This document shows, piece after piece, positions 20,709-46,880 of a stretch of DNA of 64,000 bases; position 1 is the first letter of the stretch, and each line of letters opens with the position of its first letter. The notes under the pieces are model-generated. The model was given only the letters and a program-made list of their open reading frames with translations, was not told the origin of the DNA and did not search any database. Both the position numbers and the translations under genes were made by a program. Origin of the DNA: a virus; IMG/VR virus record IMGVR_UViG_3300045988_112441; one strand, 5' to 3'.

Positions 20709-20726
20709 GTATCCTGTGTTATATAG
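20709..20726 (-). promoter_or_regulatory. Conserved 18-bp element GTATCCTGTGTTATATAG, copy a, just upstream of the ligase RBS
   Basis: One of at least seven near-identical copies of GTATCCTGT(G/A)TTA(C/T)ATAG, each just 5' of the RBS of a minus-strand gene. Confidence 0.5.
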
Positions 20727-20727
20727 T

Positions 20728-20768
20728 TATAGCTAATAAAGAAAGGCTTGTCGTTACGAGCAAGCCTT
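20728..20768 (-). terminator. Hairpin AAGGCTTG-N10-CAAGCCTT with flanking T-rich tracts
   Basis: 8-bp perfect stem, followed on the minus strand by TCTTTATT. Lies between the helicase and ligase operons. Confidence 0.4.
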
Positions 20769-20777
20769 CTCTTTCTC

Positions 20778-20795
20778 GTATCCTGTGTTATGCAT
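20778..20795 (-). promoter_or_regulatory. Conserved 18-bp element, copy b (GTATCCTGTGTTATGCAT)
   Basis: Sequence identity with the other copies. Confidence 0.4.
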
Positions 20796-20839
20796 CTAAA
20801 GAGAGAATTTTAAGCCTACGGGATGGAGACTTTTTATAA

Positions 20840-20857
20840 CTATATTATACAGGATAC
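20840..20857 (+). promoter_or_regulatory. Conserved 18-bp element, inverted copy c (CTATATTATACAGGATAC)
   Basis: Reverse complement of the element. Confidence 0.35.
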
Positions 20858-20868
20858 GAATATAATTG

Positions 20869-23800
20869 TCAATGCTTTTCTGAAAATTCTTTCCGTAAAA
20901 ATTCCTTCAAGAACGTCCGCTTGTATGGCACCCTCGAAGTCTTTACAGCCCGATCAAGAGCATGAGTTTCGGCGCAAATCACACAATACTTCTTGGCACG
21001 AGTAATGGCCGTATAGAGCCATTCTCTCGTCAGCATCAGGTATGCAGAGTTGTCCATACCAACAATCACATACGGAGCCTCACTGCCCTGTAGTTTATGA
21101 CAACTTAAAGCATAAGCAAGTTCAAGCGTTGCCCAGATGTTATTCCCACCAAAGTAATGCGGAATGAAGATCGTTCCCCATTGGTCAAAATCAACCAGAA
21201 TAAAACTAGTCTCAATCTTTCGGATAATGCCACGGTTTCCGTTGAACACCGGACACTTCTCTTCCTTTTTCTTTGTCTTGAGATTGTATGTGTGAAGTTC
21301 ATAATTGTTCTTGTTGATAATGACTTGATCGCCCTCACGCAGAGTATACACTCTATCCTTGCCATCACCATAGATTGTGACCTTTGCTTCTGCTTGACCA
21401 CGACTCGGATTCACAATTTCCTGAATAGCATTATTGACTTCATAAGTACAGATACTACCACGCAGCTTCTGTGGAAGTACAATCTGAATCTTCGCACTAT
21501 CATTCCCTACCTTATTATATAAGGTACGGTACTGATTGATGATGTGATTGAATGACTCACTTGCATCTTTATAGATATCAAGCTCCAAATCACGAAGTTC
21601 ACCACGAATCTCACTACCAGCCCAGCCATAAGGCACCAATTGCGTAGCATTGCGAACCTTGATGCTCTCCGTGATAATTGCAGACTTAGCTGCCTGACGA
21701 TGGATCTTAGTCAACCGAGCCACAGGAACAACCTTAGATGCAAGCATATCCTTGAAAATGTTACACATACCGATGCTCTCAAGCTGTCCGTCATCACCAA
21801 TCATGATGAATCGCTTTCCGGTCTCGATTGCCTGAATCAAGTCATAGAACAACTGAGCTCCAACCATAGATGTCTCATCCAGAATGATAATATCTTCTTC
21901 AAGAGGATTGTCCTTGTTATGAATGAAACCACCATTCTCAATATCATAACCAAGAAGACGATGAATGGTCTTCCCGTCCTGACCAGTAATCTCCTGCATA
22001 CGAGCTGCGGCACGTCCAGAGAGTGCAGTCTGAGCGAAAGACTTACCGTGAAGGACCTTTAGAACACCAGCGACAACGGTACTTTTACCGGTGTTGCCTG
22101 TGACACAAATTCTTCCATTATATCTTATCAGAAACATATGAGACGGAACCGTAAAACAATACTTATATCCATCGCTTGAACGAACAATATCAATATCGCT
22201 TTTACTGCCTTTTGTCATAAGAGAAACTTTTCCATTCGAGTGTTGCACAATATGAACATTATACTCTGTGACCATTCTACCGTGCCGTTCAATATTTGAT
22301 TCATGTACAACAGAACGATAACCACAAGAAGAAAATGCGAACTGAACAAAATCTGCCGTTTCTTTAATCAGTGTACTAAAATCTTTCCGTCTCCCCTCTT
22401 TTACGTGACCGTCCCAATTTAGAATCTCATCGCAAATCACCTCTAGCTGATGATGATTACAGCTATACCAATACGAAGTAAATCTTTTTTCTTTTCTTGG
22501 AGCATAAAAGACAAAGTTCGAATATTCCAAGTCTTTTGGATTCCACTGATGCTCATCAAAGTATCTACCACTTTCCAAAAGAAGTCTTCTCATGCGAAGT
22601 TTCTTTCGCTCTTTTTTTACGTTTACTCTACACCAAGCTGATTTATGATCCTTCAAAAACGACCCATCGCAAATAACAGCACACATTAGTCTAATATCAG
22701 CATCGCTCAAATCGATTCCTGGACCATCATAATTGAACGTTGTTATAAAATGTCCGTTAAACCCAGACTTTCGTTTAACATTTCTTTGATACAACTCCCA
22801 CATTGGGATTTTAGCTAAATTGTTTTTGCTGGTCAAGTAAACAACATTATGCTCTGCACTCAATAGTTGATTGATACTGCCCGACTTGTTTTTCATGTGA
22901 TATAGATATTCACATTTAAATTTTACATATTTCTCAGGCTCAACAAGCGTTGTAGTCCCATTTTCATTATATTGAAGAACTTTGTCGCCCTTAACATAAT
23001 CTTTTATTTTTTTCCATTGGATACCATTAAAGAACTCCATCTCTGCATCAAGGCATCCGCCGTAACCTGTTAAGATACAGACGTTGCTAGAGCATACCTT
23101 TTTAATAGCATCTCTCTGCTCTTCAGTGTACTCGATACCAAGTTCATCCTCGGCCTCATTGATTGTTGCATCCATATTTCGACCAATCGGCTCAACAGGA
23201 ACATCCGCCAGACGCTTGATTTCCTTCGCAATACTATCTTCCAGATTCCACACTCTAGTTAAAGCAAATTCCTGACGGTCATCGCTCCACCAAAGCGTTT
23301 CACGAGCATCATGCAAATGGAAAAGTGCCCTTTTGATGACTTCTTGGTCACCCTCATTCAAATCAAGTTCCTTAATACAGCTATTGATTGTCTGGTTTGC
23401 CGAGATGATAGAGTTGCCTTCTTCGGCACGGCCAGCAAGAAAGTGCATGACGTAAGCTTCAATTCTAAATTGCGAATTGTGTTTCAACCCCATATTCAGA
23501 GCTAGAGCGTCAGCCTTCTTCCAGCCGATGCCATACACATCGTCAATCAGGACGTAAGGATTCTCTTCAATCTTTCTCACCAGAGTGTCTGCACCATGAT
23601 ATTGACGGACAAGCTTTTCAATAGCACTAGGGGTCAGACCGTACTCAATTAGCTTTGTGTACGCATCACTGTTATCAATGTTGTTTTCATAAGTATCAAT
23701 GATCTTTTGAGCTCTGCCTTCCGTAATACCACTAACAGTGCAAAGCGACTTGATATCACCATTCTTGATAATCTCATACGGATTTTCGAATGCTTCATAA

Positions 23801-24162
23801 AGTATCTCAAACTGATGGTCGGTCAGGATATAATGGAGAAAGCTTTTCTGTTCTTCCGGGTCAGTAATCTCTTGAAACTCATTCATATAAATGATTTTAT
23901 ACTGGTCACCAAACTTTTCATGATGAACATACTCACCACAGAACGAATAAGTTTTATTCATATCGAGGCTAGGAACGTTGCCCTTTAACCGGAGGTCACT
24001 GTATCGACTCATAACAGGATTTCCCTGCTTGACTTTTACCACCTCGGCAGAGAAAGTGGCGAAGCCGCCGGGCTCCACCTCCCTCCCATCTTTCGGATAA
24101 AAGACTCGTTTTATCCTGATGTAGCAACGGATCATATTTTCATTGAATTTTTTATCTGCCAC
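20869..24162 (-). CDS. RecD-like SF1 DNA helicase with an intein in the Walker A P-loop
   Basis: 1097 aa. N-terminal HhH-like domain. GYGG|C...intein...N|TGKST. Helicase motifs DETSMV, IMIGDDGQL, HKLQGSEA, ITRAKK. Confidence 0.8.
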   Translation of the reverse strand: MADKKFNENMIRCYIRIKRVFYPKDGREVEPGGFATFSAEVVKVKQGNPVMSRYSDLRLKGNVPSLDMNKTYSFCGEYVHHEKFGDQYKIIYMNEFQEITDPEEQKSFLHYILTDHQFEILYEAFENPYEIIKNGDIKSLCTVSGITEGRAQKIIDTYENNIDNSDAYTKLIEYGLTPSAIEKLVRQYHGADTLVRKIEENPYVLIDDVYGIGWKKADALALNMGLKHNSQFRIEAYVMHFLAGRAEEGNSIISANQTINSCIKELDLNEGDQEVIKRALFHLHDARETLWWSDDRQEFALTRVWNLEDSIAKEIKRLADVPVEPIGRNMDATINEAEDELGIEYTEEQRDAIKKVCSSNVCILTGYGGCLDAEMEFFNGIQWKKIKDYVKGDKVLQYNENGTTTLVEPEKYVKFKCEYLYHMKNKSGSINQLLSAEHNVVYLTSKNNLAKIPMWELYQRNVKRKSGFNGHFITTFNYDGPGIDLSDADIRLMCAVICDGSFLKDHKSAWCRVNVKKERKKLRMRRLLLESGRYFDEHQWNPKDLEYSNFVFYAPRKEKRFTSYWYSCNHHQLEVICDEILNWDGHVKEGRRKDFSTLIKETADFVQFAFSSCGYRSVVHESNIERHGRMVTEYNVHIVQHSNGKVSLMTKGSKSDIDIVRSSDGYKYCFTVPSHMFLIRYNGRICVTGNTGKSTVVAGVLKVLHGKSFAQTALSGRAAARMQEITGQDGKTIHRLLGYDIENGGFIHNKDNPLEEDIIILDETSMVGAQLFYDLIQAIETGKRFIMIGDDGQLESIGMCNIFKDMLASKVVPVARLTKIHRQAAKSAIITESIKVRNATQLVPYGWAGSEIRGELRDLELDIYKDASESFNHIINQYRTLYNKVGNDSAKIQIVLPQKLRGSICTYEVNNAIQEIVNPSRGQAEAKVTIYGDGKDRVYTLREGDQVIINKNNYELHTYNLKTKKKEEKCPVFNGNRGIIRKIETSFILVDFDQWGTIFIPHYFGGNNIWATLELAYALSCHKLQGSEAPYVIVGMDNSAYLMLTREWLYTAITRAKKYCVICAETHALDRAVKTSRVPYKRTFLKEFLRKEFSEKH
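22093..23055 (-). mobile_element. Intein (about 321 aa) with a LAGLIDADG-type homing endonuclease domain, inside the helicase P-loop
   Basis: The host P-loop reads ILTGYGG-[CLDAEM...VTGN]-TGKST. Intein starts with Cys and ends with Asn followed by Thr. Internal LMCAVICDGSF and FAFSSCGY motifs. Confidence 0.7.
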
Positions 24163-24174
24163 TTTATAACCCTC

Positions 24175-27100
24175 TTACGCTATCTCTCTATCATGCAGCC
24201 ACTGCTTATAAGGCTTCATCTTCTCAACAATGTACGAATTTTCTTTTCTCTTGCAAAGGATTGCAAGATCGTTACCCTTTGAAATCAGACTTGAATATCG
24301 TGCATACTGAGATGCCCAACAAATCATTTCGACAATACCACCTGTCGTGTAAACATGTAAGTACGCAAACTGGTTGCCACGTTTATCCTTCTTTTTTTGG
24401 ATATCTACGATGACACAAATAGCAGTTGCCTTACCGCCATCCTCTACAGTATCAAGACCAGCATCAATATAGGTGCAAGCATCCTTAATGGGATTGCTAG
24501 TCAAAAACATTGAAAGAGTTTCAAATTCCCACATGTGCTCGTCTTGCATATACTTTTCAGCAAACGCCTGCATAAATGCATTCCGCTTTTTGTCTTTTTC
24601 TTTCTTTCGATTCCATGTGCCCGCTTCCCAGCGCTCCCTTCTTACCTTATTATATAAGGCAAGTCTGGTTGGTTTGTCTTTAACAGAGTCCGTATCAATG
24701 CCGTATTCGTCTTTAAGAATGGAAATCTTAGGGAGAGACGCCATCTCATGGAATCCTTTCTCTTTATACTCATTCTCAAAAACCATATTTGCAAAAGTGA
24801 TTAAGATTTTTTTCTTATCCTTTGTCGGGATAGCGCCAGCCTTAATCAACTTGACAACATTTGAGGTTCCAATCTTACCACCGTTTGCTCTCTGAACAAA
24901 GTCTGCCAGTCCAGAATATGGACGGTCTGCAATCACTCCTGAAGCGACACTCTCACCCATTCCCTTAATGGCTTTCAAACCAAACAGGATTGTGTGCTTT
25001 TCCGCATCAGCCTTAAATTCCATATCAGACTTGTTGACACTTGGAGGAAGGACACGAATATGTAGACGGTCGCATTCGTTGATAAACACACCCATTTTGC
25101 CAGAATCGTCTTCCTTGGTAATCATACACGCAGCCATGAAATACTCAGTATAATGAGTTTTCAGGTAAGCCGTCAGGTAAGAAAGAAGTCCATACGCAAC
25201 TGCGTGGCCTCTATTAAAGGAATAAGAAGCCTGCTTCAAGATTAGTGCCCACATCTCAGAAATCTGGTAATCATTCCATCCTTTCTTGTGAAGACCATCT
25301 CGGAACTGAACTTCCAAGGATGCCATAACATCTTTCTTTTTCTTGCCGATAGCACGACGAGCATTGTCAACCTCAGTTTCAGGGAATCCTGCATAGCGGA
25401 ATACCGCTAGTGCCTGTTCCTGATAAAGAAGAATGTATTGCGTCTTAGCAAAAAGCTGTTTGATGTCAGGATGGAGTAGTTTGATAGTCTCTGGATGAAG
25501 TTTATTGGAGCAATACGTCGGGAAGCTGTCCTTAGTACCAGGACGATTCGCTGCGTTCACAACAATGATATCCTCAGCATTATCGCACTTTGCTTCAACA
25601 CACATCTTTCGTGCTTCTGCAGATTCCATCTGGAAAATGCCAATTGTGTTGCCCGACTTGTAGACGGTATCATAGACAGCCTTATCACTTAGATCAAGAT
25701 GGTTGATATCGACATCTTCCCATGTTAATCCAGCCATCTTTAACGTATCGTCAATAATGTCCAGATTCTCAAGACCAAGGAAGTCCATCTTGACCAGCGA
25801 CAAATCATCCATGGCATTGTGCATCTCAAGTTGGCACATCTGATTGCCTTCTCTGTCCATACAAAGAGGACAATATTCAATGACAGGCTTGGGCGTAATC
25901 AATGTACCGGCAGCATGGCGACCCATACTCTTAGGCAGACCCTCAAGACGCATAACGTATTTGAACCATAGAGGAAACTTGTCATATACATTAGAAAGCT
26001 GTTCACTCTTTCCGAGGATATCCTTTAGTAGAACTTCCTTTTCAACTTCTTCGCCAAGATCATCCAGCGTTTTTACAGTCGGAATTAACTTGGCGACCTC
26101 ATTACGTAATTCATACGGAATCTGCATATAATACGGGCTTTCTGGGTCTTCGTTCAGAACTTTGCCAATATCTTTGATGGCAACTTTTGTAGACAAAGAG
26201 TTAAACGTAGCGATAGGAGCAACATTTTCTTTGCCGAAAAGTTCTTCTGCAATAGCAATAAGTTCCTTTCGACGACGTTTAGAGACATCGAAGTCGAAGT
26301 CGGCCAGGCTCTTTCTACCTTTGTTTGCAAAGCGAGAGAAGTCAAGATCCCAACGAACAGAGTCAATCTGAGTAACATTCTCCATAAAAAGGCAAAGACA
26401 ATTTGCGCCAGAACCACGAGAGTACCCACGAGGAATTTTGCGTTCATCAGCCTTTTTGCAAAGCATATACAGCATAATGAAATAGTCAATATAATCAACA
26501 TACTTCAAAACATCCAGTTCCATCTCAATACGATTCCGCCGGGTTTGCTGTTCCACTTCACTCATCCACCCGAATTTTTTATTAAAAGTGGCATATACAA
26601 GGTGCCGAAGATAATCAAAATGAGAATCAAATTTTCCCTCAATTTTCACTTCTGGCATCTGGTTCGGCTGTCCAAGACCGATATCGATATCATCAATCAT
26701 GTCTGCGATTTTCACAGACATCTCACAGCCTTTTTTGATAAAGTCCTCATCAAACTGCTTTGATAGCGTTCTCAAAACATCGTTTTCAGTCTGAAGATAG
26801 CAGTCAACGTAGCTTTCACCAACTTCTCGGCCTTCTCCAATCTCAACAAAGACAGAGTGTGCATCAATATCTTCTTTAGAAAGCATGTGAGCATCGGTCG
26901 TAATGGTATACGGCAAGTCGTATTTCCTAATAAACGCCGCAATTTTTGCATTGGCCTCAGCTTGATCTGGCGTATCATGTGACTGTACTTCCATAAACAC
27001 GTCATCAAAGATCCATTCCAGTTTGTTCCATAACTGCCATGCTTCAGTCTCGTTGCCATCAACAAGTAATCTACTCATTCGACCAACTTGACAGGCTGTA

Positions 27101-27519: not shown

Positions 27520-27860
27520 CTATTCTCCTTCCACCATTAAAACTGATTACGTTCCTTCAGGCGCTTAATCCAACGCTTGCGCTTTTCATCGGCAGTAATA
27601 TTTGCGTGCTCAAAAAAAATCATAAATACGGTCATCGTCGTCATCAAACAACGCATATAGGCAATTGAGTACATCGCCATATTCTTCATTCAAATCAGCC
27701 CACGCTTCACGAATACTTACTGGTGTAGGGTTCTTTTCTATCACGAGCCCGGCGAAGCTTTAATGCCGCCTTTGCAACTTCAGAAGCCTCTTCTGACAAC
27801 TGCGCTAAAATTTCATTCTCGTCGATATAATCAAGGACTCGCAGACCTTTATTTCTATCT
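27520..27860 (-). pseudogene. Fragmented small gene (three consecutive reading frames, no ATG start)
   Basis: Protein-like segments ...ILAQLSEEASEVAKAALKLRRARDRKEP / TPVSIREAWADLNEEYGDVLNCLYALFDDDDDRIYDFF / EHANITADEKRKRWIKRLKERNQF lie in three frames. One join is at an A8 run (27612-27619). Confidence 0.3.
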
Positions 27861-28622: not shown

Positions 28623-28631
28623 ATACTCACC

Positions 28632-28880: not shown

Positions 28881-28883
28881 TTT

Positions 28884-29523: not shown

Positions 29524-29524
29524 A

Positions 29525-35659: not shown

Positions 35660-35687
35660 ATATGTAAATTCCTCTCTAAATCTTTTA

Positions 35688-35981
35688 TTAAACTTTCAAA
35701 CACTCATACCACGGATCACCCGTTTCAACTGCATGAGCAACATAATCCAACTGACGGGTGATGTTATCCACACTATCAACCAGAAGGTCTTTACACCCTA
35801 CCGGAACAGCACCACCATTGCATTCCGCGTCGGCTTTAGCTTCTGCAATAATCTCAGGATGCGTAGTAAACACAATAGACATCATCGGAGAGTCTTCTTC
35901 AGGTTCCTTTTCAAGCGCTTCGATGTAGACAATGTAAAATTTCATACCATTATAAGCGGTATACTCAAGAGTATTCTGCAT
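35688..35981 (-). CDS. Hypothetical protein
   Basis: ORF track. Confidence 0.4.
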   Translation of the reverse strand: MQNTLEYTAYNGMKFYIVYIEALEKEPEEDSPMMSIVFTTHPEIIAEAKADAECNGGAVPVGCKDLLVDSVDNITRQLDYVAHAVETGDPWYECLKV

Positions 35982-35996
35982 AACTAAACTCCTTAT

Positions 35997-36014
35997 GTAT
36001 CCTGTATTGCATAG
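35997..36014 (-). promoter_or_regulatory. Conserved 18-bp element, copy d (GTATCCTGTATTGCATAG)
   Basis: 15 nt upstream of the ATG at 35981, followed by an AAGGAG RBS. Confidence 0.45.
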
Positions 36015-36030
36015 CTAATGCTAAAATAAA

Positions 36031-37489: not shown

Positions 37490-37506
37490 ACGGCATCACC
37501 CCATTT

Positions 37507-38727: not shown

Positions 38728-38777
38728 CGCCTACCGCAGATCGGTCAGCTGTTAAATATCCTTTATTTTCTGGCAAA

Positions 38778-40242
38778 TTATCCTCCTTGCTTTTCTGGAA
38801 AATGCTTCTTAGTTACTGCAACGCAGAACGGTTCAATTTCAGATCCCCAGATAGCAGTACCATCACCATACGTACTTTCAAAGACAAGCGGAAAGCCACC
38901 GATTCCATCAAAAAGACTGCCAAGCGTAGGATTCTCACCGATATACGGCTTCATTTTCTGGAAAATCCAATACCACTGAGGCAATGCAATCGAATTGCCG
39001 AGCGCCTTGTAACGAGGAGAATCAGCTGGTTTGTGCTTTTTACCATTCTCATCAACCCACTCGCCAATATCAGTCCATCCATCAGGGAACCCTTGAAGTC
39101 GTTCACACTCGACAGGAGTCAGGCGACGAACAATCCATTGCAGATTCTTCGTTTCCTTCTCTGCAATCAAGTCAGTAGCATCCTTGTAGTCACGAGATTT
39201 CATCGTACTAGCTTGTTCACTTTCCTTGTATTCACCAATGCGTTGCATTGCAAAGGTTTTCTTTTCAGCAACAAGCGGCATATTATTGCCACCAGTCCCC
39301 CATTGAGCCGTACAAGCCGGACTTGTGTCGCCCTGTTGAGTGTATCGAGCATCCTGACTGTGACTCTCAAACACCACCGGCGAAATCTTTTGTTTTGAAT
39401 TATGTAAAGAGGTGTTGTCTGCCAAGCAAATTAACGTTTGATCTTGCAATGTAGAAAGCGTTGCGCTCTTCTCGATTTGTACCAGTGCGCCTTTGCCACC
39501 ACCTTCGCATCCTGAACGAATCTTTAAAGTGTAGGCAACAGCATTACGGTCAATAGTGTTTATAGTGAAAGCAGTATCTTCTTTTACACCAGTCCCATTC
39601 ATGTTGGTTTCTCTGTCAATCATGTTTCCGACGATACAAAAGCTTTTTTCTCCCACCACTCGATCATTTCCAACAATGCATTTTTCAGCAATTCTGGCAG
39701 CACCTTGCCACGTCGGGATGCTCTCGTCAGAATTCCCTGGCACGCCCGTGCGCTCAAATAATATCTTTGCGGCACGTTGTCCTCCAAAATCCATGACAAG
39801 CGCGATTCTTTGACGACGTTGGGGCACTCCCCAGTATTGAGCATCGAAGAGTCTCCATGCCAAAGACCATCCATTACCGGAAATTGCGCCGGATTTAGAC
39901 CATTTTCCACCTTTTTCCGAAGGTTTAGGAATTGTAGCGTCTGCTTCGACGATGTGTGCAAATTCTTCCAAGACACATCGGAAGTCTTCTCCGTTGTTTG
40001 AGGAGAGTGCTCCTCTAACATTTTCCCAGATTGCAAATTTTGGATATTCTCCATTGGTGGTATCCCTCATTTCTTTTATCACACGAATCATTTCCATAAA
40101 TAGACCAGACCGTTCTCCAGCCAAACCTGCCCGCTTACCGGCAATAGAAAGATCTTGGCTAACAAGGTGAACCACCAGTGATACACGAGACAGGTTCAAT
40201 CTTAGAACCATCAATCTCGCAAATACTTCCATAATGTTTCAC
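38778..40242 (-). CDS. C5-cytosine DNA methyltransferase-like gene, motif order IV-X then I-II, disrupted at the catalytic Pro-Cys codon
   Basis: Motifs in order: ENV (VI), QRRQR (VIII), TRD, RLTPVECERLQGFP (IX), GNSIALP (X), then LFDGIGGF (I) and SEIEPFCVAVTKKHFP (II) at the C-terminus. The GGSPC part of motif IV lies in an upstream frame (GTG at 40242 with a GGAGG RBS). A 4-nt TTAG insertion at 40159-40162 ends that frame with TAG. The ATG at 40232 then gives a protein that reads VSQDLS where motif IV should read PCQDLS. Confidence 0.65.
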
Positions 40243-40259
40243 CAAACCACCTCCTTTTC

Positions 40260-40277
40260 GTATCCTGTGTTACATAG
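40260..40277 (-). promoter_or_regulatory. Conserved 18-bp element, copy e (GTATCCTGTGTTACATAG)
   Basis: Just upstream of the GAAAAGGAGGTGG RBS of the C5-methyltransferase gene. Confidence 0.5.
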
Positions 40278-40383
40278 CTAAATCTCAGAGAATAAGCGAA
40301 AAACAATAGACGTATCAACGTCATATTATTTCAACGCTTATAAAACAAAAGTTCTAGCGGGTTTTATGTACGCCCTTTCGGGC

Positions 40384-40464
40384 TGGTGGGACATGTCGGA
40401 CTTGAACCGTGATACATATGCTCAGTTATGAGCTGAGTTCTCTAACCAATTGAGATAATGTCCC
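40384..40464 (-). tRNA. tRNA-Met/Ile2 (anticodon CAT), atypical
   Basis: Perfect acceptor (GGGACAT/ATGTCCC), D-arm and anticodon arm (CTCAG-CTCATAA-CTGAG), and an encoded CCA. The variable region is about 9 nt and the T-stem has only 3 bp (mismatches at 49:65 and 50:64). Confidence 0.45.
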
Positions 40465-40653
40465 ATAAAAACCAGTTAAATAGCTGCAACTATTCAACTG
40501 GGCACCTTCCTTATAAAACACTATTGCATCTATATCATATAGACGAGGAAGGAATAACAGCGATGCACATTTCCTATATCTCGCCCCTTTCGGGGTGGTA
40601 TCTCGCACAGGCGCGGCCGGATCTGACCGCCAAAGATCCTACCCATACGAGAT

Positions 40654-40728
40654 TGGAGCAGCGAAAGGTAGTCGAAACCTCATCCTCAGCTTGGAAGGCT
40701 GATGTACTAGCCGTTGTACGACCGCCGC
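40654..40728 (-). tRNA. tRNA-Gly (anticodon TCC) with a G3:U70 pair
   Basis: Full cloverleaf: acceptor GCGGCGG/TCGCTGC with G3:U70 and G7:U66, D-arm GTAC-AACGGCTA-GTAC, anticodon loop CTTCCAA, T-arm GAGGT-TTCGACT-ACCTT, U73 and CCA. Confidence 0.6.
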
Positions 40729-40831
40729 ATGAAAACCCAGCTTACAAAACACTACTGCACCATCACTGGCGAGCTGGGAATAATAGTGGTCAAAGGATAT
40801 CAACAAACGGTACGCAACCATTCTATGACCG

Positions 40832-40916
40832 TGGTGCCACAGGCGAGACTCAAACTCGCAAGCCTTTCGGCGTCTACCCCTAAAATAGATGTGTAGGTCA
40901 ATTCCACCACTGTGGC
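40832..40916 (-). tRNA. tRNA-Leu (anticodon TAG), class II
   Basis: 85 nt. Acceptor GCCACAG/CTGTGGC, anticodon stem TCTAT/GTAGA, loop TTTAGGG, variable arm CGCCGAAAGGCTT, T-arm GCGAG-TTTGAGT-CTCGC, A73 and CCA. Confidence 0.65.
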
Positions 40917-40923
40917 ATATAAA

Positions 40924-40997
40924 TTGCGCCGGAAAGAATCGAACTTTCGCAATCGGGACTTCAAAGGACCCTGCCTTAACCGCTTGGCTACGACGCA
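40924..40997 (-). tRNA. tRNA-Gln (anticodon TTG)
   Basis: Acceptor TGCGTCG/CGGCGCA, Gln-like D-arm GCCAAGCGGTTAAGGC, anticodon loop CTTTGAA with a U:U mismatch in the stem, T-arm GAAAG-TTCGATT-CTTTC. No encoded CCA. Confidence 0.6.
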
Positions 40998-41093
40998 TTA
41001 TATACTTGGCTTGCTGTGTCCTATTGCTCCATTTTTGGAGAGCCAAGAATAATAGGAAAGGTATTTTATGAAAAGCATGTTGGGAAACCAACT

Positions 41094-41166
41094 GGTCGAA
41101 AACGTCAGATTTGAACTGCAACTCCTGCTCCCAAAGCAGGCGTGTTACCATTACACCACGTTCTCG
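41094..41166 (-). tRNA. tRNA-Pro (anticodon TGG), atypical
   Basis: C1:G72 acceptor (CGAGAAC/GTTTTCG), A73 and CCA. Anticodon arm CCTGC-TTTGGGA-GCAGG. One extra nucleotide at positions 8-9, and a weak T-stem. Confidence 0.5.
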
Positions 41167-41169
41167 ATA

Positions 41170-41257
41170 TGGTGCCGCAGGTGGGATTCAAACCCACGAT
41201 CCATATTTCAGGCGTCCCGGTTTAAGCGGGAAATGTATGTCACTCCATCACTGCGGC
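41170..41257 (-). tRNA. tRNA-Leu (anticodon TAA), class II-like
   Basis: 88 nt. Acceptor GCCGCAG/CTGCGGC, anticodon stem TCCCG/CGGGA, loop CTTAAAC, 17-nt variable region, T-arm GTGGG-TTTGAAT-CCCAC, A73 and CCA. Confidence 0.5.
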
Positions 41258-41263
41258 ATATAT

Positions 41264-41295
41264 AGAAGCTGTATTTTTTTACAGCTTCTTTTTTA
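41264..41295 (+). terminator. Strong rho-independent terminator on the plus strand (antisense to the tRNA/HNH array)
   Basis: AGAAGCTGT-ATTTTTTT-ACAGCTTCT followed by TTTTTAT; 9-bp perfect stem. On the minus strand it is followed by ATATAT, so it is not a terminator in that orientation. Confidence 0.55.
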
Positions 41296-41301
41296 TCAAC
41301 G

Positions 41302-42198
41302 TTAATTTTCCTCTTTACTGTTCATATCTAATTTTCTGTATGGTAAATCATAATACTTGCACCATTTACGTATGGCATTTCCTGATACTCCATATTTTCT
41401 TCCAACATCTTGAAAGGACATTGAAGCTGTGTCTACCATCAATTGTTCTTTATCAGGAAAATCAATGCGTTTACTGTAAGGATTTCCTTTTAAACAATTT
41501 TTACAGAGACATCCTTTTGCACGCGGACTCATTTCTTTTCCGCATATTGAACAATATTTGATTTTTCTTCTTTTTCTTTCTTTTTTCTCACGGATAACCT
41601 TTTCACGTGGAATTTGAGTTACGTTGTTTTCAATCATTAGTTGCCTTGCTTTGTCATACCACACTCTCGCAGAATAATAAATTCCAACTTTTTCAAGAGC
41701 GGCATTTATAGTTGATGTTGTTTTTAACGCATCAAGAAAATCTTTATCGCTCACAGTCTTGTATTTCCCGATATTATTTTTGCACCAATTATCAGTTTGT
41801 GCATGACAATTCGGGCAAAGCAACTGAAGATTGTCTAATTCATTATTTATGTGGTTTCCGTCAATATGATGTACTTGCAATGGAATCTGTTTGCCCATCT
41901 ATTCAGAGTTTCCACAACATTCACACTTATATGGTTTGATAGAAAGAAGTGCGGATTTTAAATCCTTTATTCGTCTTCCATTTTTAAAACGAGACAAATC
42001 CACGTTCCCTTTATTCTAGCCCTGCCCAGTGAAATGAGAAGTATTTATATTGTGCGCTTTTGCATAATCTTGAAGTACGTGATTCGTACTTCCACCATTT
42101 TTTGAATATCCAAGCTTCTCCGCAACCGCAGCCTAACTTTTGCTTTCCTCAAAAGCTTGCTCAATTTCTTCTTTTGTAAGTTTATCAATCTTTTTCAT
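41302..42198 (-). CDS. HNH homing endonuclease as one continuous 299-codon frame with three in-frame TAG codons
   Basis: GGAGG RBS before the ATG at 42198. Frame reads MKKIDKLTKEEIEQAFEESKS-TAG-38 aa (KLGYSKNGGSTNHVLQDYAKAHNI...)-TAG-38 aa (...KPYKCECCGNSE)-TAG-MGKQIPLQVHHIDGNHINNELDNLQLLCPNCH... TAGs at 42133-35, 42016-18 and 41899-901. No other stops or frameshifts; ORF-track coordinates confirm they share one frame. Confidence 0.7.
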
Positions 42199-42390
42199 AA
42201 AATGCCTCCAACATCTAATAAATGAATATTCGGACTCTGGTGCCAAGGACGGTATTCGAAACCGCATGTGTTTCCACAGCGAGGTTTGGGCTCGCCCTGT
42301 CTCCCATTTGCAGCACCTTGGCATATATTGCCGGTCTTTCCCGGCTGTCAGCCCCGCTCAGGGCATTTTCGGAGGAAGAAAATGTCTTAA

Positions 42391-43059
42391 TTACTCATTA
42401 CCAAGCGTATCAGCGATATCCTTGAAGTCATTCCACTTGATTTTGACAATTACTCGATTACCTCTGCGGTCTTTCAACTCAACCTTTGGACGACCAACCA
42501 GACCTTCCATATAAATGTCATCAATCGAAACCGTAGACTTCGGATGTTGACACACAAACTTGATACCGTCTCGAATCGTCCCTGTAAACAAAATAGGAAC
42601 TACTTGGATACCAAACATCTGAGCAGTCTTTTCAACCCACTCTCTACTCTGGTAGTTATCACCAACCAGGGCATCGAACAAGATGAACCACTCATCAGGT
42701 CGGTATCCATGACCACATCCTTGAATTTTGCCACCATAACCCTCTCCAAAGAGGATTACTTCTTTATCACCGTAAGTCTGTTCAAACAATTCCTCTGCTT
42801 CAGAAGTACCGAAAATTTCATTTAGTGCATCCACCAAATTCTTAGGAAGTTCGGCACGTTCAGTTCGTCCGGCAAAGCTGACTTTATGACCGTCCCAGCA
42901 AACACGCACATTCGTGCCATCCACTTTCTCAGTAAATTCCCACTCATTATTTTGTAGGAACTCAATGGTTTCATTACGAAAATCACCGATAATCAGCTTT
43001 TTAGTGCCTTCGATATCACGATTAAACACCGTTTCGATTTTTTCGTAGGTTTTCATCAA
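42391..43059 (-). CDS. RNA ligase (ATP-dependent nucleotidyltransferase, Rnl-like)
   Basis: 222 aa. Lys-adenylation motif TEKVDGTNVRV. Size and fold resemble small phage/bacterial RNA ligases. Confidence 0.6.
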   Translation of the reverse strand: MMKTYEKIETVFNRDIEGTKKLIIGDFRNETIEFLQNNEWEFTEKVDGTNVRVCWDGHKVSFAGRTERAELPKNLVDALNEIFGTSEAEELFEQTYGDKEVILFGEGYGGKIQGCGHGYRPDEWFILFDALVGDNYQSREWVEKTAQMFGIQVVPILFTGTIRDGIKFVCQHPKSTVSIDDIYMEGLVGRPKVELKDRRGNRVIVKIKWNDFKDIADTLGNE

Positions 43060-43132
43060 AAATCACCTCAAAATTCTAACGTATTTTCGTTAATTATTTT
43101 AACGAAAATCACGATAAAATGTCTATTTTAAT

Positions 43133-45345
43133 TCAGCTCTTCTGCTGACTTGCGTAGAACTCATTCCGCAGCTGAATAATACCCTTTTTGCAGAAAGATT
43201 CCTGGTCTTTCTCTCGTTGTTCACGCATCCAACCATAAAACAGGTTATCCTCAGCAGTAAATAACTTTGCGGTATTTTCATAATAGCCACGTTTCTGAAC
43301 GCTCTGCATGACACCACGCAAGAACTTCCAGTGCTTATAATAAGGAAGCTTCATCTTAAACATGAAATTGTTGCTGTCTCGCAAAACAAAGCCTTCAACG
43401 TGTTCAAAGCCATGATGCAGATAGTTCTCGTTCATGACTTCCTCGTACCAAGGATAGAATTCACTCCAGTTCTCAAAGGTCTTAACCTTCTCCTTAATCT
43501 GCAGATGACACTTCTCAGCTACACGCTTCAGATCATCGTAATCCATCACACTGAAGTTCATATCATTCGCAACAATATCCAGCAAAACAATATGCGGTTT
43601 CTTATATTCAATGATATGAGCATCATTCACAGGATCAATCACCTCGAAGATGATAGAACCATTCTCTTTTGCAACTTCTTTCAGATTCTTACGGTCTTCA
43701 TCAGAAGTCGTATCCATGAGAATCTTTCGGAACATATCTGCAAAAGGCCCTTCAGGAGTGGATTTACTTGCAATGAACAGACCATCCTGTTCTGCATCAT
43801 ACGAAATGATACCAAGAAATCCATTCTCTTTTAAATATGCAGTCACCGGGAACTTCAAAGTGTTCTGTAGGTTTCCAATTCTCGTTTCATTCCGCTCATC
43901 AACCGCAAAGAATTTATCATAGCTTCGAGCTACAATCTTATTCGTCTTTGTGTTAATGAACAATCCCCTTGCTTTGGTAGAAACCTCATCCCAATGCTTC
44001 TTATAAAATGCTTCACGAGAGAAGTTGAAAGAAGAAATATCTCCGAATCGCTTCTCAAACACATATTTGCTTTGACGCATCTTACCAACAAGTTCTGCGT
44101 TATCGAACTCAGTTTTCATTTCAACGGCAGTTTCAGTCTTTGGCTCCTCTTTTCGGAACACATCGTTCTTGGTTTCTACACACTTGATTGACTGACCGTG
44201 TTCAAGTTCCACGCAACGAAGATATCCGCCAAACTCGATTTTTCCTTCGAGGTTGTAGCACCGATGCCCCATATCAATAGGAACATCCTGCACATTCCGA
44301 TGACCGAAGATCTGAATGTAGCTATCCGGCATCGATTTTTCCCAAGACTCAGCCACGGTTAGCATATCAGGATAGCGACCTACACCTTTAATCATCTGAT
44401 CAGCAGATACAAAAGGAAGAAAATAAGGCAGATAGCTCAGGCCACCATGACTTACAAAATACCGCTTACCATCATACTCAAAGTAGGCACACTGGCCGAC
44501 TCTGGAATAGATCTTACGAGCAGTGTTCTTGTCAATACCGGCTTTAAAGAGCTGCGGACGAGTGTAGTTTGCAAACTCTTCACTCTGAACCGGTTCATCA
44601 TGCCCCACTTGTTCAGACAACGCTCGTGATTCCCTTCCAAAAGGATCACATTCTTGCGGTTGTTATTTACAACATCACACAAGAACTTGAATACTTCAAC
44701 GTTTTCGATGCCACGATCGAGATAATCACCAACGAAGATATAAAGTTCGTCGTCCTTCATCTCACCAAGGTATTCACTTAAACAAGTATAGCAGCCATGA
44801 ATATCACCGATGACATGAACCTTCTTCCACTGGTTGAAGTCATTCGGATAGTAGTTCAAATCGGACATCACATCCGTAGTAGAAGGAAGAACCGTCACGC
44901 CAGAAGGAACTTTTTGAGTAGCAAACCGAGCGTACATCTTATCAATGGCCGCTTCAGGAACTCGCTTCAGCCATTCTCTCTGAGCGTTTCTTCGTTTGCA
45001 TTCCTCGATCGGAAGATCCGTCATGTCAATAACATACATCCGATAACGATACTGTTTTGCAAGATTCTTATAACGATTCATTTCGACCGTCTTGGAATTC
45101 GTTGCATCAATCACGGTAAACTCACCATGACTCATACGCACCTCAAGCAGTTTGAAAAGCATCTCCCATACAACATCATCATTCTGCGGAGAAATCTCCA
45201 TCTGCCCGGCAGGTGTTTCCTGTGCGCTCTGGCACATAAGGCGAAGTGTATCAGCACTCAATACGTACTGCTCAAGATTATGCTCTTTAATATAGGTGGA
45301 CTTCCCACAACCTGGTGCTCCACGGAACAGCAAAAGCGTTCTCAT
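43133..45345 (-). CDS. Pnkp-like polynucleotide kinase/metallophosphatase/ligase-like adenylyltransferase, encoded in two overlapping frames
   Basis: ORF 44452..45345 has a P-loop kinase (FRGAPGCGKST) plus GDIHG/GDYLDRG/GNHE. ORF 43133..44620, in the -1 frame, continues with FVSHGG, GHRN and a KENGF ligase-like motif. The 169-nt overlap contains T_TTA_AAG in phase (44542-44548) and a G4 run. Confidence 0.6.
44542..44548 (-). promoter_or_regulatory. Candidate -1 ribosomal frameshift heptamer T_TTA_AAG inside the Pnkp overlap
   Basis: In the zero frame of the upstream ORF (tct tta aag). A -1 slip enters the downstream frame (ttt aaa gcc...). Confidence 0.3.
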
Positions 45346-45366
45346 CTACATTTCCCTTTCTAATAA

Positions 45367-45384
45367 GTATCCTGTGTTACATAG
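45367..45384 (-). promoter_or_regulatory. Conserved 18-bp element, copy f (GTATCCTGTGTTACATAG)
   Basis: 21 nt upstream of the Pnkp ATG. Confidence 0.5.
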
Positions 45385-45390
45385 TTACAA

Positions 45391-45417
45391 TGTTAAAATC
45401 AAGGGGCAGAAGCCCCC
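45391..45417. terminator. GC-rich hairpin GGGGC-AGAA-GCCCC with T-tracts on both sides (bidirectional terminator)
   Basis: Downstream of gene 45423..46349 and upstream of element f. Same terminator-then-element layout as between helicase and ligase. Confidence 0.5.
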
Positions 45418-45422
45418 TGTTT

Positions 45423-46349
45423 TTAATTTTTGTGGAAGTATTCGACCCAGCCCTTGTATCCTTGTCGAAAACTGATATACGCAACCTTGCTGCACTTTCT
45501 TCCGATAATGTCCGCAAGAGGATATTTACCATTTCCGAAACTAAGTTCTGCAAGATTAAATTCTGGATGAGTTTTACAGTAGTTATAAACCTTGACATAC
45601 TCGCCGTTTCTGGTCAGATGTCTTCGGTCTAAAGCCTTTGAATGATATCTTCTTTCGAGAATATCATTCAAGCGCGTGAAATAACTATGAATCGTATTCG
45701 TAGACATTTTTGAATCACTGTCTGCACCAGTTCTATCCTCTGTTTTGCGAAGAATGTAATCACCATTTATGACATAAAACGTTCTGTATCCTCCCATATT
45801 TGGAGCATCGTATTGTTTCATTTCATAACACTGCTTAATGATATTCATCAATCTCGCGTCAACACCGGTCTTATTCAGAACAGTACATGATTCAAAATCA
45901 ACATCGTTAATTGTCAGATTAGAAACCTCTTCGGAAGTAAGACCAATCCAGTACAGCACGGCAATCACGTTCATACGAATCTGATATGGTTCTTCATACT
46001 TGTCCAAGAAATCAACAAACTCATCAGCTGACGCAAAATACTTGTCCTCGTACATATTGTCTGAACTCACGTCGCTCTCCGAGAATTCAGCTAAGTCATA
46101 CATGCTCGCTCGATACTCACTTTTGATGTAACCTGTAATTATTGACTTTACATTTCTGAACGACCGACTTGAATTCACCCAATTGTATTTGGCAAACATC
46201 TTTACAAAATCATCTTTTGTGAAGTCAAACAACTCATACCCACGCTCGGCCTCGTAATCCATAACATGGTTAAGTGTCGATACAACAAACTCACCGCTTC
46301 TATCAGAATACTTTTCGGCAAAAGCTTTGATTTTTTCTTCAGTAAGCAT
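45423..46349 (-). CDS. Hypothetical protein (possible divergent tyrosine-recombinase-like fold)
   Basis: 308 aa. LTSEEVSNLTINDVDF and HSYFTRL...RRH...Y segments resemble recombinase boxes, but only weakly. Confidence 0.3.
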   Translation of the reverse strand: MLTEEKIKAFAEKYSDRSGEFVVSTLNHVMDYEAERGYELFDFTKDDFVKMFAKYNWVNSSRSFRNVKSIITGYIKSEYRASMYDLAEFSESDVSSDNMYEDKYFASADEFVDFLDKYEEPYQIRMNVIAVLYWIGLTSEEVSNLTINDVDFESCTVLNKTGVDARLMNIIKQCYEMKQYDAPNMGGYRTFYVINGDYILRKTEDRTGADSDSKMSTNTIHSYFTRLNDILERRYHSKALDRRHLTRNGEYVKVYNYCKTHPEFNLAELSFGNGKYPLADIIGRKCSKVAYISFRQGYKGWVEYFHKN

Positions 46350-46402
46350 AGTGGCACACTCCTTCTTATTATATGTAGTGTACCATTAAACCTTATAAAA
46401 AA

Positions 46403-46822
46403 TCAAGCAAATGCGGCAAAATTCTGAAATTCCATAGTATGTTGTACGCCGCTCAGGAATGCTGCGAGCAAAAACGGCTCATCCTTACATCTTGCCATTG
46501 CAATCATATTCATTTGACGCTCCGACAAGACACCAAGTTTCTTAATGAACTGTCCTTTGTTAAGTGTATCAGTCTCTTCACAGAGAACGATACTGTCAAC
46601 CTCTAGGAAATCACAATCTTCCTTTGCGAGTAAAACATGAACCGGAGAGCGCTTGTATATTCTGGAAGACAACGGATTTCCTTTAATTGTGGGACTAAAG
46701 AAGTTGCGCTTATTGTTGCTCGTCACAACGAACGGTCGAATACCGCGCTGCTGATGACCTGTCGCATTGGACAAATCGACCAACCAAACCTCTCCGACCT
46801 TTGGGTCAGTATTGTTGTCCAT
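46403..46822 (-). CDS. MazF/PemK-family endoribonuclease toxin-like protein
   Basis: 139 aa. GEVWLVDLSNATGHQQRGIRPFVVTSNN...PLSS...HVLL...VDSIVLCEE matches the PemK/MazF fold signature. No MazE-like antitoxin ORF adjacent. Confidence 0.6.
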   Translation of the reverse strand: MDNNTDPKVGEVWLVDLSNATGHQQRGIRPFVVTSNNKRNFFSPTIKGNPLSSRIYKRSPVHVLLAKEDCDFLEVDSIVLCEETDTLNKGQFIKKLGVLSERQMNMIAMARCKDEPFLLAAFLSGVQHTMEFQNFAAFA

Positions 46823-46840
46823 AGTTTTTTCTCCTCTACA

Positions 46841-46880
46841 ATAATGTAGCTCCGTTCCATAGCTACATTATACAGGATAC
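46841..46880. promoter_or_regulatory. Palindrome ATAATGTAGCT-N9-AGCTACATTAT overlapping inverted element copy g (CTACATTATACAGGATAC, 46863-46880)
   Basis: 11-bp inverted repeat upstream of the MazF-like gene; operator-like. Confidence 0.4.

Follow-up and report, generated by a model that had tools for sequence, protein, structure and literature searches.

The window analysed here, a stretch of 64,000 nucleotides, belongs to a prophage integrated in Faecalibacterium prausnitzii chromosomes. Seven copies of one box were found in it, either as direct copies (D-type boxes and one middle box, M) or as inverted copies (P-type boxes). The features are as follows.

19382-20695, ATP-dependent DNA ligase gene, behind the D-type box at 20709
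20709..20729, minus strand, D-type box of the ligase gene, TAACTA-TATAAC-ACAGGATAC; Shine-Dalgarno (SD) sequence 2 nt on; invariant in 25 relatives
20743..20768, minus strand, intrinsic-terminator-like hairpin and T-run, between the middle and ligase-proximal boxes
20778..20798, minus strand, middle box M, TAGATG-CATAAC-ACAGGATAC; a hairpin terminator then follows
20837..20857, plus strand, P-type box in promoter P1, coding strand GTATCCTG-TATAAT-ATAGTTA, N6 being the -10 hexamer
20844..20872, minus strand, promoter P1, TTGACA-17-TATAAT, 12/12 consensus matches
35997..36017, minus strand, D-type box of the replication operon, TAGCTA-TGCAAT-ACAGGATAC; SD 3 nt on
40260..40280, minus strand, D-type box TAGCTA-TGTAAC-ACAGGATAC, preceding the C5 DNA methyltransferase gene (38778-40232)
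40289-40322, weak hairpin and weak promoter-like site near the D-type box at 40260
45367..45387, minus strand, D-type box of the Pnkp/RNA-ligase genes, TAACTA-TGTAAC-ACAGGATAC
45402..45418, minus strand, terminator-like GC-rich hairpin and T-run, ending the mazF-like/sroF-like operon
45423..46349, minus strand, 308-aa MrpR/YopR/SroF-like integrase-fold protein without Arg I and HxxR, the candidate binder
46403..46822, minus strand, MazF/PemK-like toxin gene, first in the P2 operon
46860..46880, plus strand, P-type box in promoter P2, coding strand GTATCCTG-TATAAT-GTAGCTA
46867..46895, minus strand, promoter P2, TTGACT-17-TATAAT, 11/12 consensus matches

Sequence and number of the boxes

A sequence-only reading of this DNA had described seven copies of an 18-bp element. 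Scanning the window with the degenerate 18-mer gave 3 exact matches and 7 at up to 3 mismatches (plus strand at 20709, 20778, 35997, 40260 and 45367; minus strand at 20840 and 46863), the chance levels by dinucleotide shuffles being 0.00 and 0.13, respectively. The seven copies were thus borne out, with about 0.1 expected by chance. The element is real and repeated, but the conserved unit was found to be 21 bp long, asymmetric and bipartite, TAGCTA-N6-ACAGGATAC (7 matches at up to 2 mismatches; about 1.15 by chance even at up to 3), and the T-rich 5' flank probably belongs to it. The 9-mer ACAGGATAC occurs exactly seven times in the window, always at a box site, for a chance expectation that we estimate at about 0.5. 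All of the copies are intergenic, N6 is free, and the box occurs in both orientations; by our reading, P-type and D-type sequences are complementary at 19 of 21 positions. The palindromic core (10 of 13) proposed earlier falls in the part varying between relatives, and is therefore not a conserved feature.

Direct and inverted copies

Each of the five direct copies points the same way as the genes. The earlier placement before a ribosome-binding site held for four of them, at 2-9 nt from the SD sequence instead of 5-25 nt; behind the copy at 20778, a terminator hairpin was found in place of the ribosome-binding site. We agree that, with such SD gaps, the direct copies are too near the start codons for ordinary -35/-10 promoters, and no usable host promoter was detected at the four SD-proximal copies in the window. 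The first gene behind the box at 35997 (35688-35981) opens an SPbeta-like replication operon extending down to 20869. Hairpins with T-runs precede the copies at 20709 and 45367, as had been noted from the sequence, and a weaker one precedes the copy at 40260; the box at 45367 is located 14 nt past the terminator of the repressor operon. No sigma-A promoter was visible at the D-type sites 10-25 nt after terminators (20709, 45367 and, more weakly, 40260).

Both inverted copies lie within canonical sigma-70-type host promoters that the sequence-only reading had overlooked: the box fills the 3' part of the spacer and N6 carries the -10 hexamer. P2 is the promoter of the mazF-like and sroF-like genes. 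Together with PX, a promoter of the relatives, P1 and P2 make three strong sigma-A promoters in which the P-type box spans -21 to -1. For P1, the 5' half of the spacer varied among 25 relatives with the box conserved, and for all three promoters the 5' half varies with GTATCCTGT constant; in their combined profile, the information content is about 0.1-1.2 bits per position where the spacer varies and 2 bits within the box. As the conserved GTATCCTGT precedes the transcription start, it is constrained as DNA.

Conservation in relatives

The box is present family-wide in F. prausnitzii prophages of about 130 kb, and stays invariant as its flanks drift. The middle box reads TAGCTA-TATAAT-ACAGGATAC in most relatives, and lies 38 bp downstream of the P1 box. 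Inverted pairs keep a gap of 38-39 bp at three loci with unrelated intervening sequences, flanking promoters or initial transcribed regions. At one locus of the relatives, a strong promoter, TTGAAT-17-TGgTATAAT, is flanked by a box directly against the -35 and by a D-type box covering about +4 to +24; this D-type box is therefore not itself the promoter. The relatives also carry a gene for a YonO-like RNA polymerase (tblastn 9e-23 against SPbeta YonO; Pfam RdRP 3.7e-15), which is preceded by a D-type box.

The candidate binding protein

The 308-aa protein is encoded by the second gene behind the box-bearing promoter P2, and belongs, as a catalytically dead member, to the MrpR/YopR/SroF family. 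A 78%-identical homologue passed the curated Pfam cut-off for MrpR_N_CB, and MrpR_C_cat is precomputed on nearly all of 77 homologues (E<=1e-5 for P0065). By Foldseek against the PDB, the top six hits were SroF-DNA, MrpR, SroF-Sar and YopR, ahead of Cre, at TM-scores of only about 0.27 with an AF2 model that is poor past residue 180. Arg I and HxxR are lost and Tyr is kept, as in MrpR (PMC10516654); the two other recombinases of the window retain all three. Identity to YopR was only about 23% in a MAFFT alignment, and the direct sequence match to MrpR was not significant (phmmer against the PDB; hhalign E=0.08). The homologues found were all at least 74% identical, and their boxes were unchanged. 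Within the window, no other sequence-specific regulator was recognised and no sigma factor was found.

The SPbeta and phi3T repressors of this family have an integrase fold but no catalytic activity, and their monomers bind long asymmetric boxes that are dispersed over lytic promoters; phi3T SroF, binding as a monomer, contacts 24 of 26 bp (bioRxiv 10.1101/2025.11.27.690993). The asymmetry, the free N6 and both orientations of the present box are as predicted for a monomeric binder of a long box.

Interpretation of the boxes

We consider, with a probability of roughly 0.6, that the boxes constitute an SPBRE-like multi-copy operator set for the MrpR/SroF-like repressor of the phage. Among the three options raised by the sequence-only reading, an operator for a phage regulator is favoured, because a candidate regulator of a multi-copy-box family is encoded behind a box-bearing promoter and because three host-type promoters keep the same conserved box in their non-transcribed spacer; a polymerase promoter is made less likely for the gene-proximal copies, and an RNA-level 5'-UTR element is unsupported. 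As an integrated prophage of F. prausnitzii, the phage needs a maintenance repressor. By analogy with its relatives, the 308-aa protein may clamp the boxes as a monomer, and its binding would be repressive. At P-type boxes it would occlude P1, P2 and PX; since P2, a putative autoregulated repressor promoter, drives the repressor gene, negative autoregulation would be implied. D-type boxes may act as roadblocks, stopping transcription just past its start or blocking read-through, often as a back-up to a terminator, at what would be lytic operons (RNA repair, methyltransferase, replication, ligase and, in relatives, the YonO-like polymerase). The whole set would hold the prophage silent. Against an operator set, the layout of a terminator followed by a D-type box without a sigma-A promoter resembles a dedicated promoter, a pure roadblock needs neither strict co-orientation of D-type boxes with genes nor closeness to the SD, and SPBRE of SPbeta is mostly in a single orientation, with an inverted pair at yosX only.

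The boxes might instead be operators for a protein other than the SroF-like one, which we think unlikely. Position and analogy are all that link the SroF-like protein to the boxes, and the window holds many small ORFs without a recognisable domain; the candidates would be a catalytic-looking 279-aa recombinase (53436-54275), an Xre-type HTH protein of the relatives, or an unrecognised small early protein. SPbeta, too, has an Xre-type 'putative repressor', yonR. However, an asymmetric box without a dyad fits neither a dimeric HTH protein nor the core site of a recombinase, and the Xre-type gene, which stands beside the integrase in relatives, has its own distinct TGTTACA repeats upstream and no box within 21 kb. 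The box-bearing promoter belongs to the SroF-like gene, whose family is known for scattered long asymmetric boxes.

The main competing account, which we regard as rather improbable, takes the D-type boxes as promoters for the YonO-like single-chain polymerase of the relatives. With start sites within ACAGGATAC or immediately behind it, leaders would be very short, and the same enzyme or factor would occlude early promoters at the inverted copies. The direct boxes do form a conserved 21-bp sequence, in a single orientation 13-30 nt ahead of start codons, at several sites within 10-25 nt after a terminator without a sigma-A promoter; such a polymerase is encoded in the phage family, and the promoter sequence of YonO is undefined (PMC5467207). 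Contrary to this account, the inverted copies are in exact register with the host -10 at three promoters and would fire antisense into upstream genes, and one D-type box covers approximately +4 to +24 relative to a strong host promoter. From the middle box at 20778, RNA synthesis would stop at the hairpin after only about 45 nt, and the fixed inverted pairing at 38-39 bp has no rationale for promoters. In SPbeta, YonO transcribes the late operon only, from a single start site (PMC5467207), whereas the boxes precede early and middle genes, with none in about 16 kb of late-arm sequence sampled, and the YonO-like polymerase gene itself has a D-type box.

An action of the direct copies in RNA is much less probable still. 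They would be sites in the 5' UTR for a translational regulator, or processing sites, for example for a MazF-like endoribonuclease, whose gene is present in the window; at two loci, an RNase III substrate might arise by their pairing with the P-type sequence in read-through RNA, in keeping with the 19/21 complementarity. The direct copies are always sense and 2-9 nt from the SD, but the conserved P-type boxes lie ahead of their transcription starts, no Rfam matches were obtained, and leader folding was no better than for shuffled sequences (z -0.4 to +1.5). A complementary partner is lacking in the vicinity of three of the window's five direct copies. The motifs recognised by MazF enzymes measure 3-7 nt, against 21 nt for the box. 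Inverted pairs and three genes of the tyrosine-recombinase family could suggest recombination sites such as invertons, a reading with hardly any probability, as most boxes are single, the pairs stand 38-39 bp apart and not around a crossover spacer of 6-8 bp, no box has internal dyad symmetry, and the inverted arrangement was seen in none of more than 40 unique promoter contexts.

Comparison with known systems

Overlap of operators with early promoters and autoregulation of the repressor promoter, both proposed here, are also features of the lambda CI/Cro system. In lambda, HTH dimers bind 17-bp operators with dyad symmetry, which are grouped in two control regions; in contrast, the present boxes are asymmetric and scattered over tens of kb, and their candidate binder is an integrase-fold protein. 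Promoters of the T7 class and of YonO are similar in that about 20 conserved bp lie directly upstream of genes, often after a terminator and with short leaders, but the present box is also found within host promoters, inverted and in register, and immediately behind one host promoter, and is absent from the late-gene regions sampled. Where a strong constitutive promoter has the site between its -35 and -10 and is soon followed by a terminator (P1, PX), the arrangement recalls the lambda Q binding element and promoter-proximal terminator at pR'; however, no Q-like protein was found, most boxes are outside promoters, and D-type boxes come after terminators.

The closest likeness is to the SPBRE-MrpR system of SPbeta and phi3T, although the box sequence is unrelated: SPbeta has an A/T-rich core, AAAATATGTATA, by our own scan, and phi3T a 26-bp A-tract box (bioRxiv 10.1101/2025.11.27.690993). 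Unlike SPBRE, the present box is bipartite and accommodates the -10 hexamer in its free N6, occurs in two orientation classes and in inverted pairs with the fixed gap, and often comes after a terminator without a visible promoter. The repressor operon consists of two genes, the MazF-like toxin gene first, against the six-gene sroA-F operon, and neither arbitrium genes nor a LexA box was found in the window. Common to both are the large size and temperate lifestyle of the phage, a divergent YonO arm, a syntenic yorF-yorL-type replication operon, an integrase-fold repressor that has kept Tyr without Arg I and HxxR, a long asymmetric box in many copies that are only intergenic, and, among the targets, the operons for replication and for the repressor itself and the gene of the phage RNA polymerase. 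The two placements are also the same, because SPBRE in our SPbeta scan either fills the spacer of TAGACA-17-TATAAT promoters or abuts the SD just past the promoter. ChAP-seq of MrpR gave peaks at the yorE (replication operon), yorM and yonP-yonO promoters and at that of its own operon; analogously, boxes are found here ahead of the syntenic replication operon, of the gene next after the polymerase/helicase block, of the YonO-like gene and of the repressor operon. The mechanism has so far been described only in SPbeta-type phages of Bacillus, and here it would operate in a large, widespread prophage of Faecalibacterium prausnitzii, a host of the class Clostridia.

A conserved bipartite box

The boxes, 21-bp elements of the form TAGCTA-N6-ACAGGATAC, are most likely a putative operator set for an SPbeta-type integrase-fold repressor of a widespread Faecalibacterium prausnitzii prophage. 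All seven copies proposed in the sequence-only reading were recovered at the same coordinates and strands, three as exact matches and seven at up to three mismatches, against 0.00 and 0.13 in shuffled sequence. The 9-mer ACAGGATAC occurs seven times in the window and never away from the box sites (about 0.5 estimated by chance), and the bipartite 21-bp unit gave seven matches at up to two mismatches, against about 1.15 expected at up to three. The copies are spread over 26 kb of the window, and all (7/7) are intergenic. Five of them, the direct copies (D-type), read TAGCTA-N6-ACAGGATAC. The claim that the element stands before a ribosome-binding site held for four of these five, in which a Shine–Dalgarno (SD) sequence after 2–9 nt and a start codon follow; it failed for the copy at 20778 (the middle box), which is followed by a terminator hairpin instead. 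The two inverted copies (P-type) lie inside host-type promoters and match a reverse-complemented direct copy at 19 of 21 positions.

A motif search in relatives had also been proposed. Scanning of IMG/VR with a pattern that left out the TAGCTA block identified a family of 115–140 kb contigs carrying the element at the orthologous places before the ligase, Pnkp and methyltransferase genes, and also at places beyond the window. The TAGCTA block was nearly invariant at the family sites and missing from chance matches. Further boxes in the relatives are located at a third box-bearing promoter (PX), at a promoter sandwiched between two boxes and upstream of a gene for a YonO-like RNA polymerase. 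In the alignment of the P1-to-ligase region from 25 relatives, the −35 hexamer of promoter P1 and the box are conserved, while the nine spacer bases in between vary freely. P2 and PX follow the same pattern, with a variable spacer 5′ of the box and the box itself kept. Among divergent phages the outer blocks are unchanged, and N6 reads TATAAC, TGTAAC, TGCAAT, CGTGAC, AGTAAT, TACAAT, TATGAC or TATTAC. As the outer blocks are fixed and the middle hexamer is variable, the unit is bipartite and asymmetric. The 13-bp imperfect palindrome noticed earlier spans the variable N6, and the conserved blocks are asymmetric; it was rejected as a dimer site. These observations altogether indicate that the box is a genuine, conserved regulatory element.

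The phage and its host

Nearly all genes of the window lie on the minus strand and form a replication, nucleotide-metabolism and RNA-repair region. The region codes for Pol III alpha, RecD2, ligase, RecJ, primase, DnaB, a C5 methyltransferase, Pnkp, two RNA ligases, NrdD, ThyX, FolD and dUTPase, together with seven tRNAs. At the left end of the window are a Tn916-type Xis and an integrase. Past the integrase, three contigs run on into bacterial housekeeping genes, with PriA 99% identical to that of F. prausnitzii UT1, indicating that the element is an F. prausnitzii prophage. No close annotated relatives were found in the phage collection, which gave short matches only. Replication genes of the window are homologous to and syntenic with SPbeta yorI, yorJ, yorK and yorL; a 366-aa protein matches the Pfam family YorF, and an mtbP homologue is also present. 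In the relatives, a 927-aa YonO-like RNA polymerase is encoded on a divergent arm. An ORF-poor stretch of about 2 kb separates this arm from the early arm (about 4300–6290 on contig L016; 4907–7690 on L039), and is reminiscent of the long non-coding stretch that SPbeta has upstream of yonK.

Several other features were observed. The seven tRNA genes (Met, Gly, three Leu, Gln and Pro; 40384–42322) are interleaved with an HNH endonuclease gene (41302–41898) and adjoin the genes for Pnkp, an Rnl1-type ligase and an Rnl2-type ligase (42391–43059); cluster and repair genes together resemble a module for tRNA supply and repair. In relatives, Pnkp and Rnl1 form a single 736-aa protein with kinase, phosphatase and ligase domains. 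In the window, a 1-nt deletion near 44602 splits this fusion into ORFs 44452–45345 and 43133–44620 with a 169-nt overlap; the split may reflect a pseudogene, a programmed frameshift or an error of sequencing. In one divergent relative (L114), a TnpB/Cas12f-like gene (12936–14225) has been inserted between the genes for RNA repair and that for the methyltransferase.

Placement of the boxes relative to host promoters

The two inverted copies are held by the following promoters.

Box-bearing host-type promoters in the window
P1: 20872..20844, minus strand; TTGACA-17-TATAAT, 12/12 consensus matches; holds an inverted copy
P2: 46895..46867, minus strand; TTGACT-17-TATAAT, 11/12 consensus matches; holds an inverted copy

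P1 and P2 are two of only four coding-strand promoters with at least 11/12 consensus matches in the 40 kb scanned (15000–54999). In both, the −10 hexamer comes immediately after GTATCCTG, which makes up the 3′ half of the spacer. The combination of −35 and −10 elements spaced by 16–18 bp, A at −11 and T at −7 was found for the two inverted copies only. The direct copies have no −35 at 16–18 bp; in the window their N6 reads TGTAAC, TGCAAT or CATAAC, and in relatives CGTGAC or AGTAAT. With no −35, no TGn extension and an unconserved middle hexamer often without A-11 or T-7, the direct copies were rejected as ordinary host promoters.

A host-type promoter overlaps or just precedes the box at P1, P2, PX and the sandwiched promoter, and weakly at 40260; no sigma-A promoter was visible at the boxes at 20709, 35997 and 45367 or at that of the YonO-like gene. 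D-type boxes always point the same way as the genes and are close to the SD sequence, and several lie 10–25 nt past a terminator without a visible host promoter. The box of the YonO-like gene in relatives is also D-type, 30 nt 5′ of the ATG. At the sandwiched promoter of relatives, a strong one (TTGAAT-17-TGgTATAAT), one box abuts the −35 and a D-type box lies at about +4 to +24; this D-type box cannot itself be the promoter. Inverted box pairs were found at three non-homologous loci (P1 with the middle box, PX with its D-type box, and the sandwiched promoter), and the gap is always 38–39 bp.

Some further features of the promoter regions were noted. A palindrome with 11-bp arms, ATAATGTAGCT-N9-AGCTACATTAT (46841–46871), spans the −10 region and start site of P2, and its GTAGCT/AGCTAC core is kept in relatives. 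Since its left arm is upstream of the predicted start, it does not represent a hairpin in P2 RNA; possibly it is a degenerate second site for a protein. P1 would produce a leader of about 95 nt (20743–20838, minus strand), ending at a strong terminator ahead of the ligase gene. A 5′ hairpin that is conserved (GUCUCC-N5-GGAGGC), an invariant stretch CUUAAAAUUCUCUCUUUAG and the middle box all lie within this leader, which may work as an attenuator or be a small RNA. It had no Rfam match, and its fold was not significant (z = −1.67). Two strong host-type promoters of the coding strand, TTGACT-16-TATAAT (47284–47311) and TTGACA-16-TATGAT (54485–54512), have no box, so that part of the early region would escape the regulator.

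A candidate binder of the integrase fold

The operon of P2 consists of a MazF-like gene followed by the gene for a 308-aa SroF-like protein (45423–46349, minus strand). Several lines of profile and model-based evidence place this protein in the MrpR/YopR/SroF family, with a predicted tyrosine-recombinase fold of CB and CAT domains. With the Pfam profile MrpR_N_CB, the window protein reached 21.6 bits, short of the cut-off of 27, which the 78%-identical homologue P0066 passed with 27.7. MrpR_C_cat has precomputed matches on nearly all 77 homologues (E ≤ 1e-5 for homologue P0065). Foldseek search against the PDB, using an AlphaFold model that is confident only at residues 1–180 and of low confidence in the C-terminal half, gave as the best six matches structures of phi3T SroF with DNA, SPbeta MrpR, the SroF–Sar complex and YopR; Cre ranked behind. 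Direct comparison with MrpR was not significant by phmmer against the PDB or by hhalign against YopR. The link to the MrpR family comes from the Pfam profiles, the fold search and the loss of catalytic motifs.

In a MAFFT alignment, at about 23% identity so that single positions are tentative, the Arg I position reads G-L-T in the 308-aa family and G-L-A in MrpR, against G-L-R in both true recombinases of the window; the HxxR segment is missing in both the 308-aa family and MrpR, and a C-terminal Tyr column is common to both. Loss of catalytic residues with Tyr kept agrees with Table 3 of PMC10516654. Three tyrosine-recombinase-family genes are present in the window (225–1391, 45423–46349 and 53436–54275), and every catalytic motif is kept in the other two proteins. 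One of these is the 388-aa integrase (225–1391), accompanied by the Tn916-type Xis at 1465–1659; the other, a 279-aa recombinase (53436–54275) with all catalytic motifs, adjoins a DnaD-like/DUF6291 gene.

Single-sequence and profile searches returned the same 77 homologues, all at least 74% identical, and the boxes are unchanged in the most divergent phages. Among GTDB representative genomes, no match to the repressor was found. No sigma factor or RNA polymerase was detected among essentially all minus-strand ORFs of the window by Pfam and PHROGs, and no classical HTH repressor was found in the window; 'Serglycin' and proline-rich matches in these ORF scans were discarded as artefacts of linkers. 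The MrpR family is further marked by a partner antirepressor, Sar, controlled by LexA and by a tie to arbitrium (AimR/AimP). LexA boxes are not enriched in the window (10 loose matches against 18 expected), and Pfam detected no AimR-like protein in the window, which covers about half of the phage genome. We infer a link between the 308-aa protein and the box; as judged from matching site anatomy, the protein would bind the box as a monomer and repress lytic promoters.

The MazF/PemK-like toxin gene (46403–46822) that heads the putative repressor operon has no recognisable antitoxin. In Bacillus arbitrium phages the lysis–lysogeny circuit works on the host MazEF system, and the linkage of a MazF-like gene to the repressor operon may accordingly be meaningful.

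Other readings of the box

Less likely, the D-type boxes are promoters for the YonO-like phage RNA polymerase. Such promoters would account for the order terminator–box–SD and for the strict D-type orientation, the direct copies being one conserved, uniformly oriented sequence that heads transcription units. However, the inverted copies sit in register inside host promoters, one D-type box lies at +4..+24 of a host promoter, the copy at 20778 would be in a futile position, the inverted pairs keep a fixed gap, and the late-arm sequence sampled has no boxes. By eye, we know of no resemblance of the box to T7-type or AR9 late promoters. Moreover, SPbeta YonO uses one late promoter (PMC5467207). 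If the polymerase reading were true, the box would define a promoter class of YonO-type polymerases.

It is possible that the boxes are operators of a different binder, such as an Xre-type HTH protein. A 173-aa protein of this type is encoded after the integrase on L120, the phage-form junction of a relative (11738–12259), but no box is nearby. Upstream of its gene (11626–11690) are three TGTTACA repeats of its own, including the palindrome TGTTACAGTAACA; the protein probably acts independently, as a second regulator on operators of its own.

We consider it improbable that the gene-proximal boxes serve both as promoters of the YonO-like single-chain, two-barrel polymerase and as clamp sites of the integrase-fold repressor. 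In that case every lytic operon would be headed by one 21-bp sequence contested by the repressor and the phage polymerase. This would explain both the terminator–box–SD order and the strict orientation, and a YonO-class polymerase would for the first time have a promoter sequence, a point left open by Forrest et al. 2017.

Function at the RNA level, raised earlier as a 5′-UTR element, is not supported, since Rfam gave matches to tRNAs only and the folding of the leaders is no better than that of shuffled sequence. An RNA duplex between P-type and D-type copies as an RNase III site could form at the ligase and PX loci only, the D-only sites having no partner, and is therefore not general. An inverton or recombination site was rejected.

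Implications of the repressor reading

F. prausnitzii is among the most abundant human gut commensals, and the approximately 130-kb prophage is common, a single repressor variant occurring in 753 blocks of the sequence collection. If the boxes are operators of the integrase-fold repressor, Bacillus arbitrium phages are not alone in having master repressors of this fold with long, scattered operators, and such repressors would extend to human-gut Clostridia. The repressor carries the label 'integrase' or 'tyrosine recombinase' in public databases, so that one may easily take it for an enzyme of integration. The box provides a sequence handle to map the lysogeny-controlled regulon, to predict genes silenced in lysogens and to design induction or engineering experiments. 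The unusual cis-architecture, with the −10 in the free spacer, inverted pairs at a fixed 38–39 bp and boxes behind terminators, could reveal how a monomeric DNA clamp blocks transcription.

Comparison with SPbeta and phi3T

MrpR is the SPbeta master repressor that has lost recombinase activity, and it binds the repeated element of SPbeta (SPBRE) in about 10 promoter regions, including those of yorE, yorM, yonP and its own operon (PMC10516654). SroF of phi3T binds as a monomer that encircles DNA and touches 24 of the 26 bp in an asymmetric box, and its boxes are scattered over distant parts of the phi3T genome (bioRxiv 10.1101/2025.11.27.690993). SPBRE and the box described here share many long asymmetric copies, intergenic only, over distant genome parts. 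As for the MrpR family, the putative repressor belongs to a temperate SPbeta-like phage and its own operon promoter carries a box (−21..−1 of P2); the YonO-like gene has a D-type box, and yonP-yonO of SPbeta is an MrpR target. The SPbeta core AAAATATGTATA and the phi3T box CAGTAATTTTATTTTTATTCTTAATG do not resemble TAGCTA-N6-ACAGGATAC, as expected for a repressor only about 23% identical; this dissimilarity concerns site homology rather than the way the site works. By our scan of SPbeta, the box fills the spacer of TAGACA-17-TATAAT promoters or sits just past the promoter and abuts the SD sequence, and these two placements parallel the P-type and D-type classes. SPbeta boxes are mostly oriented one way, whereas those of the present phage fall into two orientation classes. 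The cis-architecture of this putative operator set has some distinctive features within a known type of repressor system.
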